64,000 nucleotides of DNA from Shimia sp. Lineage in GTDB: Bacteria > Pseudomonadota > Alphaproteobacteria > Rhodobacterales > Rhodobacteraceae. The first letter of the stretch is position 1, and each line of letters begins with the position of its first letter. Shown here one piece after another: positions 5,683-11,358 of the stretch. The position numbers were made by a program, and so were the translations under genes. Below the pieces are notes generated by a model, which did not search any database, was not told the DNA's origin, and saw only the letters and a list, made by a program, of their open reading frames with translations. The stretch is from assembly GCA_024224295.1 (NCBI GenBank), contig JAAENN010000177.1, positions 79 through 64,078 on the forward strand, written 5' to 3'.

Positions 5683-6524
5683 GCGGGCTCTCCGGCGGGC
5701 AGTTGGGCGATCCATTGGTGCAGCACGTCAAGGCTTTCCGGTTCGTCCAGGAAAGGCACGTGGGCGCGATCTTTGACTTCCGCGGCCAGCATCGGCGCGC
5801 GGGACTGCATCTCGGTGAAGGTCTCTTGGCTGAGAATGTCGGAGTTCTCACCGCGTAGGACGGCGAGGGGTCGGTTTTTCAGCTTGTCAAACTGAGGCCA
5901 CATGTCGCCTGCGGGGGCTTTGGGATCAAATTCGGCCAGCACCGCGTTGCGCAGTTTGGGGTCGTAGTTGATGTTGAGGCCGTCGCTAGTTTCAATAAAG
6001 TGGTGCGCGGCCTCTTCTGCCCAACGGCTGGGGGGCACGTTGTGAAAGCCGGGCAGGCGGGTGGCGAGGGCTTCGGCGGCTTCGGCGCGGGTGGTCCAAA
6101 CCGGTTTGCGGCCGATGAAGACAAGGATGACTTCGAGCCCGTCGGTTTCGATCACCGGTCCCACGTCGTTGAAACAGACACCAGTGATGCGGTTTGGGGC
6201 CATCTCCGTCAACGTCAATGCGATGAGGCCGCCACGCGAGGTGCCAAGGATCGCGGCTTTCTCGATGCCCAGATGATCGAGTAGTTCCTGTGAGTCTTGA
6301 GCTTCGCGCAGGAGATTGTAGGTGGTGAAATCTTCGGCCCACTCCGATTGGCCCCGGCCACGGTAGTCCATGCGGATCACGCGAGCGTCTTTGAGGTGGG
6401 GTCGCACGTAGTCAAAGTCGCTGGCATTGCGGGTAAGGCCGGAGAGGCAGAGCACAATTGGGCCGGGCCCGCCGGTGTCATCATAACAGAGCGACAGGCC
6501 GTCAGTGGTGGTGAAATGGGGCAT
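5679..6524 (-). CDS. Alpha/beta-fold hydrolase
   Basis: CLSGLTRN, DYRGRGQS, GTSRGG nucleophile motif, AHVPFLDE. Confidence 0.88.
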   Translation of the reverse strand: MPHFTTTDGLSLCYDDTGGPGPIVLCLSGLTRNASDFDYVRPHLKDARVIRMDYRGRGQSEWAEDFTTYNLLREAQDSQELLDHLGIEKAAILGTSRGGLIALTLTEMAPNRITGVCFNDVGPVIETDGLEVILVFIGRKPVWTTRAEAAEALATRLPGFHNVPPSRWAEEAAHHFIETSDGLNINYDPKLRNAVLAEFDPKAPAGDMWPQFDKLKNRPLAVLRGENSDILSQETFTEMQSRAPMLAAEVKDRAHVPFLDEPESLDVLHQWIAQLPAGEPA

Positions 6525-7210
6525 CAGGAACTCGCAAGGTCGGGAATGCTGGTGAGGTCTGAGAGAATGTGATTGGGCGTCCAGGGGAGGCGGTCGACAG
6601 GCTCACCTGCGCGGTTGACCCAGGCGGTGGTGAAGCCATAGCCGGTGGCACAGCCCGCGTCCCAGCCGTTGGAGGACACAAAAAGCACTTCGTCTTTGGC
6701 GCAGTTGAAACGCTGGCCGACAAGGTCATAGACCAGGGCGGCGGGTTTGAAGACCTGCACATCTTCGACGCTAAGCACATCATCGAGAAATTCTTGCACG
6801 CCAGCGGACTCCACCGCGCCATTGAGCATGTCAGGCGAACCGTTGGATAGGATCGCGGTGTTCATGCCTGCCGCCTTGAGTTTTGCCAGCATGTCCGGCA
6901 CCTCGGGGTAGGCGGAGAGTTCCCAATAGAGCGCCAGCAGGCGTTCGCTCAGCTCTGGGTCACCTTGCAGGCCAGAAGCCTCGAGCGCCCAATCGAGACC
7001 GTTTTGCGTGACCTGCCAGAAGTCAGTGTGGGCGTCGGCCACGGCGCGCAGCCAGGTGTATTGCAGCTGTTTCAGGCGCCAGTCGTTAGCAACCTTCTGC
7101 CAGTGTTTGGCAAAGGCTTCGCGGCCTGGCTCTGCGGCAGCTTCGCGGGCTGCGGCGGCGACGTCAAATAGTGTGCCGTAAGCGTCAAAAATGCAGGTGG
7201 TGATGGCCAT
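6524..7210 (-). CDS. Haloacid dehalogenase type II (L-2-haloacid dehalogenase-like)
   Basis: FDAYGTLFD, WRLKQLQY, LSNGS, FKP, SSNGWD. Confidence 0.9.
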   Translation of the reverse strand: MAITTCIFDAYGTLFDVAAAAREAAAEPGREAFAKHWQKVANDWRLKQLQYTWLRAVADAHTDFWQVTQNGLDWALEASGLQGDPELSERLLALYWELSAYPEVPDMLAKLKAAGMNTAILSNGSPDMLNGAVESAGVQEFLDDVLSVEDVQVFKPAALVYDLVGQRFNCAKDEVLFVSSNGWDAGCATGYGFTTAWVNRAGEPVDRLPWTPNHILSDLTSIPDLASS

Positions 7211-7351
7211 GGTGTTCTCCCGTGTCGCGAGCAGATTGGCAGGTTTGACGCGGGGCGAAAAGGCCTGTTTTACAAATAGACGTGAGGCCTATAGGGTGCG
7301 CCGCTCAAGCCGGCTGGAAGGGTCGGGGCAAGCTGATAGATGGGACATTTT

Positions 7352-7780
7352 ATGACCGCAGCAAAATCGGGCGATACCGTCCGCATCCACTACACCGGCA
7401 CCTTAAGCGATGGGTCCACTTTTGACAGCTCCGAAGGTCGTGATCCGCTGGAGTTCACTCTGGGCAGCGGTCAAGTGATCCCAGGGTTTGATACGGCTGT
7501 AGACGGAATGACTGTGGGCGAGAAAAAAGTGGCAGAGATTCCTGCGGATCAGGCGTATGGACCGCGTCACGAAGAAGCAATTCAGGATGTGCCACGCGAG
7601 CAGATCCCGGCAGAGATCCCACTGGAGATTGGTCTTCAGTTGCAGATGCAATCCCCAACCGGTCAGGTTATGCCTGTGTCCGTTGTGGAGATTACAGACG
7701 AGGTGGTGAAGCTGGACGCGAACCACATGCTGGCCGGCAAAGACCTGACTTTCGCAATTGAGTTGGTGTCTATCAACTGA
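7352..7780 (+). CDS. FKBP-type peptidyl-prolyl cis-trans isomerase (SlyD/SlpA-like, no metal-binding tail)
   Basis: HYTGTLSDGSTFDSS, GQVIPGFD, DANHMLAGKDLTF. Start set to ATG 7352; the track start at 7340 is also possible. Confidence 0.92.
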   Translation: MTAAKSGDTVRIHYTGTLSDGSTFDSSEGRDPLEFTLGSGQVIPGFDTAVDGMTVGEKKVAEIPADQAYGPRHEEAIQDVPREQIPAEIPLEIGLQLQMQSPTGQVMPVSVVEITDEVVKLDANHMLAGKDLTFAIELVSIN

Positions 7781-7806: not shown

Positions 7807-7836
7807 AAAGCCCGCCGGTGTCGGCGGGTTTTTTTT
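7807..7836 (+). terminator. Intrinsic terminator after the FKBP gene
   Basis: aaagCCCGCCG-gtgt-CGGCGGGtttttttt. Confidence 0.85.
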
Positions 7837-7842
7837 ATGGGT

Positions 7843-8172
7843 TCAAGGAGTGCGGCTTTGTTGATCCACAATGAAATCGCCGCGTTTACAGGTTGCCAAA
7901 CTATTGGTCAAAACCACTTGGCCGCCAAGCCGATTTTCACAGTGCTTTTCGAAATAGAACTCATGCAACATGGATTTCGCCCGCATTCCGAAAGAGGGTT
8001 CCGCGCTGCCTGTCACGGTGCTTTGCAGCGCGATGAAAACAATCACGAGACTTGTGGCCACCAATAAAGGTTCCGCCTTTTTAAGGCGGGGACGAGCGTT
8101 CAGAGTGTTGCCAGCCAGCAGGACCAAAATCCCTAAGCCGCCAAGGGCGAAAATGAGCGGTTGAAACTGCAT
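7843..8172 (-). CDS. Hypothetical small membrane protein, paralog 1
   Basis: Two hydrophobic segments. 43 of 77 residues are identical, without gaps, to ORF 8412..8753. Confidence 0.8.
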   Translation of the reverse strand: MQFQPLIFALGGLGILVLLAGNTLNARPRLKKAEPLLVATSLVIVFIALQSTVTGSAEPSFGMRAKSMLHEFYFEKHCENRLGGQVVLTNSLATCKRGDFIVDQQSRTP

Positions 8173-8411
8173 TTATACAGATATCCATAATAACAGAAGA
8201 CAGCAATTTGGCGCCGTATAGTGGGGTCGTTGGGTTCGCTCCAAGCCCTTTATTCATGATTTTTTACCGTGGCAGATATGCGGTTTTTGAATGCCAGCGT
8301 TAGGTATTTGATTTGATGATCAAATTTTTGGAACCTGAGATGATTTGCGTTCCAACGGATTGGCTAAGACTGATGTACGCTGGGGCTGAGCTTGGCCAAA
8401 TAGGTGGAGGG

Positions 8412-8753
8412 TCAGCGCGGTACGTCACTTTGGCGTTGCGTTTGATCAGTCGAGAAGTCGTCGCGGATGCAATAGACGATACTGCCTGCCAGACGCACGA
8501 TACCACCCAGATGGTTTGCGCAGTGTTTCTCAAAATAGAGATCGTGCAAGATCGACTTCGACGGGCTTTTCATTGGAGACTGCGCGCCGTCAGACACAGT
8601 TGATTGCAACGCCAAAAATATCGCCACCAAACTCAAAACAACAAGCAGGGGTTCCGCGCGGTTCAGGCGCGGCTTGGACGCGGTTGAGACGCTGGAGAGA
8701 TAGACAAGAAGCAACACGCCTAGACCGGCGATCAAGAGAGCGACGAAGTGCAT
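8412..8753 (-). CDS. Hypothetical small membrane protein, paralog 2
   Basis: Paralog of 7843..8172; shared AEPLLV, ALQSTV, YFEKHC and LGG blocks. Confidence 0.8.
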   Translation of the reverse strand: MHFVALLIAGLGVLLLVYLSSVSTASKPRLNRAEPLLVVLSLVAIFLALQSTVSDGAQSPMKSPSKSILHDLYFEKHCANHLGGIVRLAGSIVYCIRDDFSTDQTQRQSDVPR

Positions 8754-9011
8754 AGTGCGAAGTCCAGAGGTGGTGGGGGACGTGATTGCGCTTCATAGGG
8801 GGGCCGTGCGTTTTCTCCAAGCGGTAATTTTGAGCAGGATGCGCCCGCTTTTTGAGCGATTGCAGGCCGGGACCTCTTAGCATTGTGATATAATTTGCGA
8901 ATTTCGCGCTGCTGCCGCTGACCCCTGGAGAAAAAATGTGCCGTATATGTGTTTTTGGGCGCTTTTCTTTTGCCCAAGCTGCGCTAGCTTGTGTGCTGGG
9001 AGGCGGTTTTT

Positions 9012-10067
9012 ATGGATTTATGTTCAATTTTGCGACTCAGGTGGCCACTGTTGCAGGCGCCGATGGCGGGGGTGTCGACATCTGAAATGGCAGCGGCGGT
9101 GAGCAATGTCGGTGGGCTTGGGGCGCTGGGCCTTGGGGCGGCGGGCGTGGACGGGGCGCGGGCGATGATCCGGGCGGCGCGGGCGCTAACCGATAGATCA
9201 ATCAATGCCAATGTGTTTTGCCATGCGCCGGCGCTGCGGGATGCGGATGTGGAAGCAGATTGGTTGGCCGCGCTGGCACCGACATTTTCGCGGTTTGGGG
9301 CGAAACCTCCGGCGGCGTTGCATGAGATTTACACCAGTTTTGTGGTGGATCGAGCGATGTGTGACATGCTGATTGAGGAAGCGCCGGGGGTTGTCAGTCT
9401 GCATTTTGGGCTGCCGGAGAAGGCGTGGATTGCGGAGTTGCAGGCGGCAGGCAATCTGGTGTTTGCCAGTACGACCTATGTGGTTGAGGCGCGGGCCTGT
9501 GAAGCGGCAGGTGTGGACGCGATTGTGGCGCAAGGCATTGAGGCAGGCGGCCATCGCGGGGCGTTCGACCCGGATGCCGAAGATGAGGCGCTGCCGACAC
9601 TTGCGTTGGTTGAGCGGGTGGCGGCGGCGTGTGAGCTGCCGGTGATTGCGGCAGGCGGCCTGATGGATGGCGGTGATGTGGCGCGGGCTTTGGGGCGTGG
9701 CGCGGTTGCTGCGCAGCTGGGGACGGCGTTTTTGGATTGCACGGAGTCGGCAGCGGATGCGGCTTACCGCGCGGCGTTGCGGGACCCGGAGCAGGGGCCG
9801 CCGGTGCTGACCACATCTATTTCAGGGCGCGCGGCACGCTGTATGCGGAATGATTTCGTGGAGCTGGGTCAAGGTTTGCATGCCAAGGTGCCGGACTATC
9901 CTGTGACCTATGATGCAGGCAAGGCGCTGAATGCGGCGGCGAAGGCGGCAGGAGAGACTGGCTTTGGCGCGCAATGGGCGGGCACCGGCGTGGCGCGGAT
10001 GCCGTCTGGTGGTGCAGCAGAGATTTTAGAAGCGATTGGCAGAGAGTTAGACGCGGCGCAGGCCTAA
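9012..10067 (+). CDS. Nitronate monooxygenase family flavoprotein
   Basis: LLQAPMAGVST, AQGIEAGGHRG, IAAGGLMDG, QLGTAFL. GGAGG lies upstream of ATG 9012. Confidence 0.92.
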   Translation: MDLCSILRLRWPLLQAPMAGVSTSEMAAAVSNVGGLGALGLGAAGVDGARAMIRAARALTDRSINANVFCHAPALRDADVEADWLAALAPTFSRFGAKPPAALHEIYTSFVVDRAMCDMLIEEAPGVVSLHFGLPEKAWIAELQAAGNLVFASTTYVVEARACEAAGVDAIVAQGIEAGGHRGAFDPDAEDEALPTLALVERVAAACELPVIAAGGLMDGGDVARALGRGAVAAQLGTAFLDCTESAADAAYRAALRDPEQGPPVLTTSISGRAARCMRNDFVELGQGLHAKVPDYPVTYDAGKALNAAAKAAGETGFGAQWAGTGVARMPSGGAAEILEAIGRELDAAQA

Positions 10068-10128: not shown

Positions 10129-11358
10129 TCAGCCGCGATATTTGGACAGCAGCATCGAGCCGTTGGTGCCGCCAAAACCAAAGCTGTTGGTCATCACCGT
10201 GTCCAGGCCGGCGTTTTCGACGAGATCGGTGGCCACTTCATCTGGGTCGATCGCCGGGTCGAGGGTTTCCACGTTGATCGATGGCGTGATGAAGTCGCCG
10301 TCCAGCATGAGCAGGCAGAAGATTGCTTCCAGCGCGCCCGCCGCGCCTTGGGCGTGGCCGGTCATGGATTTGGTAGAAGAGATTGGCGGCGTGGTGCCTT
10401 CGCCAAAGACGCGGCGCACGGCTTCAACTTCGCCAACATCCCCCACTGGAGTGGAGGTGCCGTGGGCGTTGATGTAGCTGACCTTGCGGTCTTCTGGCAG
10501 TGTGGCTGTGGCCAAACGCATGGCGCGTTCGCCACCTTCACCAGATGGGGCAACCATGTCGTGACCATCAGACGTTGCGGCAAAGCCGGTCACCTCGGCG
10601 TAGATTTTTGCACCACGGGCCAGCGCGTGCTCGAGGTCTTCCAGAACCACAATGCCGCCACCGCCGGAGATGACAAAGCCGTCGCGGTCCGCGTCAAAGG
10701 CGCGGGAGGCTTTTTCCGGGGTGTCGTTATACTTGCTGCTCATCGCGCCCATGGCGTCAAACAGGCAGGAGAGCGTCCAGTCGAGTTCTTCGCCGCCACC
10801 GGCAAACATCACGTCCTGCTTGCCCATCATGATCTGCTCTGCGGCGTTGCCGATGCAGTGCAGGGAGGTCGAGCAGGCGGAAGTGATCGAGTAGTTGATA
10901 CCTTTGATCTTAAAGGCGGTCGCCAGATTGGCGGAAATGGTCGAGCTCATGCATTTTGGTACGGCAAAAGGCCCAATGCGCTTGGTGGCGCCGGTTTTGG
11001 CGACAGTCTGGTGTGCCACCAGCATCGCCGAGGTGGAGGGACCACCGGAGCCAGCCACAAGACCAGTGCGCTCGTTCACAACCTGATCTTCAGAAAGACC
11101 GGCATCGGCGATGGCCTGTTGCATGGCGATATGGGCGTAAGCCGCGCCGGGGCCCATGAAGCGCAGGGTGCGTTTGTCGACCAGCTCTTTGATGTCGATG
11201 TCGAGGTGGCCTGCGATCTGGCTGCGGAAGCCGTGTTCGGCCATTTCAGCGCTGGCGGAAATGCCGGATTTGCCCGCTTTTAGCGAGGCGGTGACTTCTT
11301 CGGCATTGTTGCCAATCGAGGAAACGATACCCAGTCCGGTAACGACGACGCGACGCAT
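10129..11358 (-). CDS. fabB: Beta-ketoacyl-ACP synthase I
   Basis: SACSTS catalytic Cys, [22 protein letters not shown]. Confidence 0.95.

Follow-up and report, generated by a model that had tools for sequence, protein, structure and literature searches.

Within the window (the whole stretch of 64,000 nucleotides of Shimia sp. DNA that was analysed), two small open reading frames (ORFs) of similar sequence lie one behind the other, between a gene for an FKBP-type prolyl isomerase and a gene of the nitronate-monooxygenase (NMO) family. We refer to them as genes A and B. They raise three questions: whether they are genes at all, how they came to occupy this place, and what their products might do. 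A first-pass annotation had taken them for a duplicated pair of small membrane proteins of no recognised family, each with a conserved extracytoplasmic domain built around two histidines and two cysteines.

A tandem pair of genes under purifying selection

The resemblance between the two ORFs lies far beyond what chance produces. The earlier count of 43 identical residues at 77 ungapped positions, from PRL to DQ (residues 28–104), is exact; shuffled sequences give 4.9 ± 2.1 identities over this stretch and reach at most 14 in 20,000 shuffles. BLASTP aligns the two products without gaps at 52 identities in 107 positions (E 4e-32). The genes stand in tandem, separated by a spacer of 239 bp (8173–8411), and both have counterparts elsewhere in the genus. 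The orthologue of A in genome G026 is 97% identical and sits at the equivalent position, and the orthologues of B are 88% identical in G026 and 77% identical in G022 and G024. The features of the locus are collected in Table 1.

Table 1. Features of the A/B locus and its surroundings (positions are those of the window)
Feature	Position	Strand	Remarks
HAD hydrolase gene	6524–7210	minus	Neighbour
FKBP-type prolyl isomerase gene	7340–7780	plus	Convergent with A
G+C-rich hairpin, CCCGCCG-GTGT-CGGCGGG followed by T8	7811–7836		Between the FKBP stop and the A stop
Gene A	7843–8172	minus	109 aa; FKBP-side copy; from the ORF list; product a predicted two-helix membrane hairpin with a C-terminal Cys-pair mini-domain
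Conserved GGA (TGGAY) of A	8184–8186	minus	9–11 nt before the ATG
Promoter-like motif of A	8215–8245	minus	Ends 42 nt 5′ of the ATG; −35 CTTGGAGC (8238–8245), 17-nt spacer, −10 TATACG (8215–8220)
Gene B	8412–8753	minus	113 aa; NMO-side copy; paralogue of A (49% identity)
Conserved GGA (TGGAY) of B	8763–8765	minus	Equivalent of the GGA of A; 9–11 nt before the ATG
Promoter-like motif of B	8792–8822	minus	Ends 38 nt 5′ of the ATG; −35 GCTTGGAG (8815–8822), 17-nt spacer, −10 TATGAA (8792–8797)
Relic of the ancestral FKBP terminator, TTTTTGGGCGCTTTTCTTTTGCCC	8953–8976	plus	Just 5′ of the NMO ribosome-binding site
NMO-family gene		plus	Divergent from B; neighbour
fabB	10129–11358	minus	Neighbour

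To describe selection we compared 16 copies from 12 congeneric genomes and G000, together with three metagenome contigs. Over many orthologue pairs the NG86 dN/dS ratio falls between 0.13 and 0.35 (0.24 for gene A against G026, and 0.13–0.35 for the orthologue pairs of gene B), and it is well below 1 in every pairwise comparison. One pair, G003 and G028, shows 13 nucleotide differences and 0 amino-acid changes (dN 0, dS 0.17). The differences in that pair are distributed 1/1/11 over the three codon positions and those in another pair 10/2/27, an excess at the third position in both. Purifying selection, which the first-pass annotation had proposed for both genes, is thus borne out, and the pattern indicates that A and B are real, tandemly duplicated genes.

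Constraint extends over both the hairpin half and the C-terminal half of the protein. The tightest sliding windows of pN/pS cover a helix at residues 64–78 (0.04–0.08), followed by the second transmembrane segment, TM2 (0.12–0.16); the loosest cover the linker at 52–66 and the strands at 82–93. Positive selection was considered and rejected, as the sliding pN/pS never exceeds 0.58 along the protein. The family nonetheless changes its amino acids roughly 3–15 times faster than the neighbouring genes do, and the start codon and reading frame are kept between species despite saturated dS.

If A and B were instead ORFs that arose by chance, or the decaying remains of a fragment once inserted here, their weak ribosome-binding sites and the shortening of some copies would be readily accommodated. 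This reading is largely refuted, and we regard it as hardly credible: it conflicts with the low dN/dS ratios, with the third-position excess, with the 13 substitutions that leave one protein unchanged, and with a start codon, frame and promoter motif that persist across species at saturated dS.

A small orphan family in one chromosomal slot

Relatives of A and B are few. A profile search of 1.84 billion protein representatives found nine members at E ≤ 1e-3, and two word-index searches (index of 5.8e9 clusters) found four and six clusters, whose only annotation in the sources, Shimia sp. and uncultured Shimia sp., is ‘hypothetical protein’. When 61 related genomes were searched, convincing matches (E ≤ 3e-6) occurred only within the genus itself, in 12–13 of 34 genomes (13 including G000). 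All copies, even the most divergent (P0013 and P0014, at 33–39% identity), occupy one and the same slot adjoining the FKBP gene, in which they lie tail-to-tail with FKBP and head-to-head with the NMO-family gene. Between species the small protein is 30–50% identical, compared with 92–99% for the flanking FKBP in those genomes.

Congeners without the family have a gap of only ∼100 bp between FKBP and NMO, in which the terminator of FKBP and the ribosome site of NMO are all that is found. On the FKBP gene tree, the family is found in nine of nine species of one clade and in G003, G028 and G013; G033, G027, the G004 group and every deeper branch lack it. Judged by these searches, A and B belong to a very small orphan family confined to one subclade of Shimia (the name used by the sources), in keeping with the earlier description of a duplicated family without recognised relatives, and no profile database returned a match to it.

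The neighbourhood says little about function. The FKBP, NMO and HAD genes occur also in genomes that lack the family, so their presence beside it is uninformative in this respect. The ORFs surrounding A and B include no sigma-factor, kinase, transporter, phage, toxin, effector, mobile-element or metal-homeostasis gene. The first-pass annotation had named a sensor or anti-sigma partner, a surface or phage-interaction factor and a hetero-oligomeric channel as candidate functions.

Promoter-like motifs and leaders

The DNA upstream of the two genes had been described as diverged. This holds for most of it but not for one promoter-like block, the sole upstream block still alignable between A and B. 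The underlying motif, summarised as CTTGGAR-N17/18-TATAGA and more loosely as CTTGGAR-N17/18-TAT(A/G)NN, recurs in 14 of the 16 copies across species and in the three metagenome contigs, and ends 35–46 nt before the ATG although the DNA around it has diverged. It resembles a promoter of the sigma-70 family, a function that is predicted from the motif. Because the block is common to A and B, the duplication probably carried the promoter with it, which makes it plausible that each copy is transcribed separately, as the first-pass annotation had suggested. A scan of the genome for TTGGAR-N15–17-TATRNR gave 20 occurrences and no recognisable regulon, and the published text on RpoHI/RpoHII offered no usable consensus with which to compare the motif.

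Neither gene is preceded by a canonical Shine-Dalgarno sequence. The TGGAY element is present in every copy while the rest of the leader has diverged, and it could serve as a Shine-Dalgarno element, though a weak and distant one. A scan of the spacer for RNA elements (Rfam), antisense RNA and repeats found none.

Origin and later history of the inserted block

Two terminator-like sequences delimit the block that carries the genes. The G+C-rich hairpin on the FKBP side was read directly from the sequence and was not listed by the pattern scan. The same hairpin lies 3′ of FKBP in all congeners and is probably the FKBP terminator; it may terminate gene A as well, since an A-run stands ahead of it on the opposite strand. 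On the other side, the relic next to NMO matches GGCGGGCTTTTCTTTTGCG, the sequence that directly trails FKBP in congeners without the family. This relic is recognisable directly 5′ of NMO in all gene-bearing genomes, is better kept in single-copy species (G011, G007 and G023), and, on this alignment, is the NMO-side edge of the inserted block. From the relic beside NMO and the complete hairpin beside FKBP, we infer that the block entered between the FKBP stop and the old terminator. The comparisons indicate a block of ∼0.65 kb that was inserted here, later duplicated together with its promoter, and reshuffled by recombination.

The source of the insert did not emerge from tblastn and blastn comparisons with FKBP, HAD, NMO and the rest of the genome (best E 0.7–2), and a duplicated piece of FKBP, HAD or NMO was rejected as its origin on the same values. 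Recent horizontal acquisition was rejected on the GC3 of the family (0.57–0.72), which lies within the normal range of a genome whose median is 0.65. That G+C is low overall in the region stems from the first two codon positions of a protein rich in hydrophobic residues, and base composition thus indicates that the gene is a long-standing resident of the genome.

The later history differs among species. Two intact copies are found in G000 and G026. G022 and G024 combine an intact B-type copy with an FKBP-side copy of which only the hairpin is left, the lone copy of G013 is likewise hairpin only, and the remaining species have one full copy each. In the three copies without a C-terminal domain, the hairpin is still constrained (dN/dS 0.19–0.40), and the other frames of these shortened copies contain no remnant of the domain.

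Exchange between lineages has also left its traces. The slot DNA of G000 and G026 is 92–100% identical, and dS between the two genomes is 0.07 for A and 0.24 for B, against 0.58 for the adjacent FKBP; beside this near-identical slot, their HAD proteins are just 68–70% identical. When B is compared with G022 and G024, dS in the C-terminal half is 4–5 times that in the hairpin half. These contrasts suggest recombination breakpoints both around and inside the small genes. Separately, the C-terminal tail of B, DQTQRQSDVPR (listed under window positions 8733–8753), resembles the DQAPRPNDVPR of the distant single-copy protein of G010 (L025) and is missing from the G022 and G024 orthologues of B, a pattern suggesting that the tail was swapped between alleles.

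A broader and rather improbable extension of this history is that an orphan gene, born or captured not long before, came in with its own promoter where one Shimia subclade branches off, and that it supplied a new, fast-evolving envelope fold, a hairpin with a disulfide-stapled knob of one helix and three strands, for strain-specific interactions (e.g., with phages or competitors). If that were true, tandem duplication, domain loss in some lineages and trading between species by recombination would form part of the same history.

Protein architecture and predicted topology

Hydropathy analysis and AlphaFold2 agree on two transmembrane helices, TM1 at residues ∼2–23 and TM2 at ∼33–56. Only 1–3 residues precede TM1. 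The loop between the helices, RPRLKKAEP, is basic, with 3–4 basic residues and a charge of +3/+4; the N-terminus has a charge of 0 and the C-terminal domain is neutral. An alignment of 18 members gives M1, A9, G12, E34, P35, S41, L42, F46 and A48 as the residues invariant throughout the family, and all of them fall within the hairpin. The first-pass annotation had placed the conserved core in the C-terminal domain. We would place it in the membrane hairpin, since this segment holds all of the invariant residues and survives under constraint in copies without the C-terminal domain.

The AlphaFold2 model of the full-length protein has a pLDDT of 73. Modelled alone, the C-terminal domain of ∼45 residues takes the same fold as in the full model, with a core pLDDT of 91–94. 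It is predicted to comprise a helix (66–82) and three strands (85–89, 92–97 and 100–106), the helix packing on the three-stranded sheet. Among full-length members the invariant residues of this domain are F74, C78, L82-G83-G84 and C95; in the predicted structure C78 lies on the helix and C95 on the middle strand.

By the positive-inside rule, basic loops stay in the cytoplasm. Given the basic loop and the uncharged N-terminus, both termini are predicted to face outward, which would leave the loop in the cytoplasm and put the N-terminus and the C-terminal domain in the periplasm. The earlier proposal of a membrane protein with an extracytoplasmic mini-domain is therefore probably right: prediction gives two transmembrane helices with the C-terminal domain outward by charge distribution (loop +3/+4, N-terminus 0), and the Cys pair is kept. 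The genome encodes DsbB, so the simplest reading of the modelled domain is that a C78–C95 disulfide would staple the helix to the sheet.

The same residues have been read differently. In the ten closest members H70, H77, C78 and C95 do not vary, and the two histidines fall within the most constrained window, as would be expected of a metal-binding mini-domain engaged, for example, in copper or zinc sensing or buffering. More distant homologues in the same slot depart from this pattern: in place of His70/His77 they have Ser/Lys (P0012), Asp/His (P0013), Pro/His (P0014) or Ser/Ser (P0015), and the histidines are also replaced in G003 and G028, whereas Cys78 and Cys95 are kept in every full-length member. 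Because the histidines are retained only in close relatives, a four-ligand metal site, as the first-pass annotation had it, is not a feature of the family. The sequence has no CxxC or HxH-type motif, no metal-homeostasis gene lies nearby, and the Cys pair is expected to be oxidised in a periplasm that contains DsbB; we consider metal binding very unlikely.

Comparison with known families and systems

No database that we tried returned a strong match to a characterised family. Neither A nor B has a Pfam family at E ≤ 10, and none of the 18 members matches MgrB there; NCBIfam has no match for the family; PHROGs has none either (an unrelated HNH family at E 0.26 is its top hit); and PADLOC has no defence-component family at E ≤ 1. 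A sequence-profile search of the PDB gave a best E of 0.5, in transmembrane segments. Foldseek searches of the PDB gave a best E of 1.7 (TM < 0.45) for the C-terminal domain model and of 1.3 for the full-length model, and BFVD, a set of predicted viral folds, gave a best E of 0.09; none of these Foldseek searches had a hit at E ≤ 0.001. Several candidate identities were rejected. DUF2632 was hit by 3 of the 18 members (best E 0.008) in what looks like a match of transmembrane segments only. A membrane anti-sigma factor, which is co-transcribed with a neighbouring ECF sigma factor and binds sigma through a cytoplasmic N-terminal domain, does not fit a pair with no adjacent sigma-factor gene and with only 1–3 residues before TM1, and a known anti-phage defence protein is at odds with the lack of a PADLOC profile match.

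Several known systems resemble the pair in part. MgrB of Enterobacteriaceae is a 47-aa membrane protein with two periplasmic cysteines that are essential for inhibition of the sensor kinase PhoQ; it binds a larger membrane protein, and residues in the membrane and in the periplasm both matter (PMC8404706). A small inner-membrane protein with a periplasmic (here predicted) Cys pair is common to both. MgrB, however, has one transmembrane helix and a periplasmic tail of 22 residues, whereas A and B have two helices and a folded domain of ∼45 residues in proteins of 109–113 aa. Membership of the MgrB family was rejected on this difference in size and helix number and on the lack of a sequence match; as there is no fold match in the PDB or BFVD, the likeness is one of analogy only.

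Connectors of the MzrA type consist of a membrane-anchored periplasmic alpha/beta domain that modulates EnvZ, and they are restricted to particular lineages. A and B share with them an N-terminal anchor in the membrane, a small alpha/beta domain after it that is (here by prediction) periplasmic, and the lineage restriction. The anchor of MzrA is a single helix, whereas that of A and B is a hairpin, and in A and B the anchor rather than the domain is the conserved part; Pfam and Foldseek against the PDB gave no sequence or fold match to the MzrA type. The CS-alpha-beta proteins (defensins and scorpion toxins) are secreted and have three or four disulfides in a CxxxC...CxC pattern. The likeness is that a disulfide, a predicted one in A and B, ties a helix to one strand of a small antiparallel sheet of three strands, but A and B have just one Cys pair (C78 and C95, with a separation of 17 residues), are membrane-tethered, and have no Foldseek match.

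Class II holins and pinholins, membrane proteins of phages, are similar in size (∼70–110 aa), cross the membrane with two helices and end in a hydrophilic C-terminus, and they sometimes come as related pairs. Their C-terminus is highly charged and cytoplasmic and their neighbour is a phage endolysin gene, whereas the C-terminal domain of A and B is neutral, bears cysteines and is predicted to be periplasmic. Membership of this class was rejected: the neighbours are HAD, FKBP, NMO and FabB, none of them a phage gene, and neither PHROGs nor BFVD gave a match. A looser version holds that the hairpin perturbs the membrane as a pore, with B and A forming a pair of the holin/antiholin or toxin/antidote kind. 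Small proteins encoded by two similar adjacent copies, with a hairpin that alone is conserved and outlives the loss of the domain, might be so explained. The locus nevertheless offers no endolysin, spanin or prophage context, no PHROGs match, and no antisense RNA or Rfam element in the spacer; each gene has a conserved stand-alone promoter motif, and the family has long been inherited vertically. A two-partner system is also not required, as most species have a single copy, and we see little prospect for a pore of this kind.

A possible function and its main rival

Taken as a whole, the account that we favour is of an orphan, duplicated pair of small inner-membrane proteins, to which we assign a probability of roughly 0.45. 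Its descriptive parts we hold with high confidence. Under this account the hairpin would bind, within the membrane, a larger envelope protein such as a sensor kinase, a transporter, or a respiratory or biogenesis complex; its partner might alternatively be itself or the paralogue. The periplasmic knob, if stapled by a disulfide, would add a second and possibly redox-sensitive contact surface, and A and B, each with its own promoter, would be diverged isoforms. Such a small inner-membrane modulator, likened to MgrB by analogy, is in our view the most likely of the mechanisms considered, although still less probable than not.

The main rival treats A and B as factors in biological conflict, that is, as a fast-evolving envelope protein for phage exclusion or receptor masking, or as an orphan immunity protein that would guard against a competitor's toxin acting on the membrane or in the periplasm, with duplication and domain loss as products of an arms race. 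Such a role would suit a protein that is 30–50% identical between species beside an FKBP that is 92–99% identical, the patchy presence and absence of the family within the genus, its tandem duplicates and shortened copies, and the mosaic recombination around the slot. It sits poorly with the lack of PADLOC and PHROGs matches, with the lack of a toxin, effector, phage or mobile-element gene nearby, and with native GC3 in a slot that is fixed and old. Moreover, pN/pS never rises above 0.58 and is lowest (0.04–0.08) in the helix of the periplasmic domain. We judge a conflict role unlikely and retain the inner-membrane pair as the preferred reading.

With the pair, the small membrane proteins known from bacteria, a growing class, would gain an uncharacterised and unannotated family. 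The history of the pair is unusually clean: its insertion site, empty ancestral state, promoter-carrying duplication, domain loss and allele exchange can all be read within one genus, and it could serve as a convenient model for the rise and diversification of lineage-specific envelope genes in marine roseobacters. No long-standing open question hinges on it.

Neighbouring genes

Some observations concern the genes around the pair. The NMO-family ORF, listed from a GTG at 8991, almost certainly starts at the ATG at 9012 (MDLCSIL...), as its orthologues align only from residue 7–8 on and GGGAGG stands ∼8 nt upstream. Since fabB is adjacent in the window, the NMO-family gene may here encode a FabK-like enoyl-ACP reductase. 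In several deeper-branching species (G002, G031, G009 and G015; L042, L047, L048 and L049) a gene for a FabI-like enoyl-ACP reductase (262–266 aa) replaces the NMO-family gene. The slot adjoining FKBP is itself variable in the genus, G019 having an unrelated gene of 228 aa there (L039, 2015–2701).

The HAD gene (6524–7210) shows a sharp allele replacement. The G000 protein is 67–70% identical to those of G026, G011, G010 and G007, and 92–97% identical to those of G022, G024, G029, G023 and one metagenome contig. The alpha/beta-hydrolase and FKBP genes that flank HAD keep an identity of ∼85–99% throughout, and DNA identity with G026 falls from ∼85% to 55–70% between roughly 6540 and 7230.
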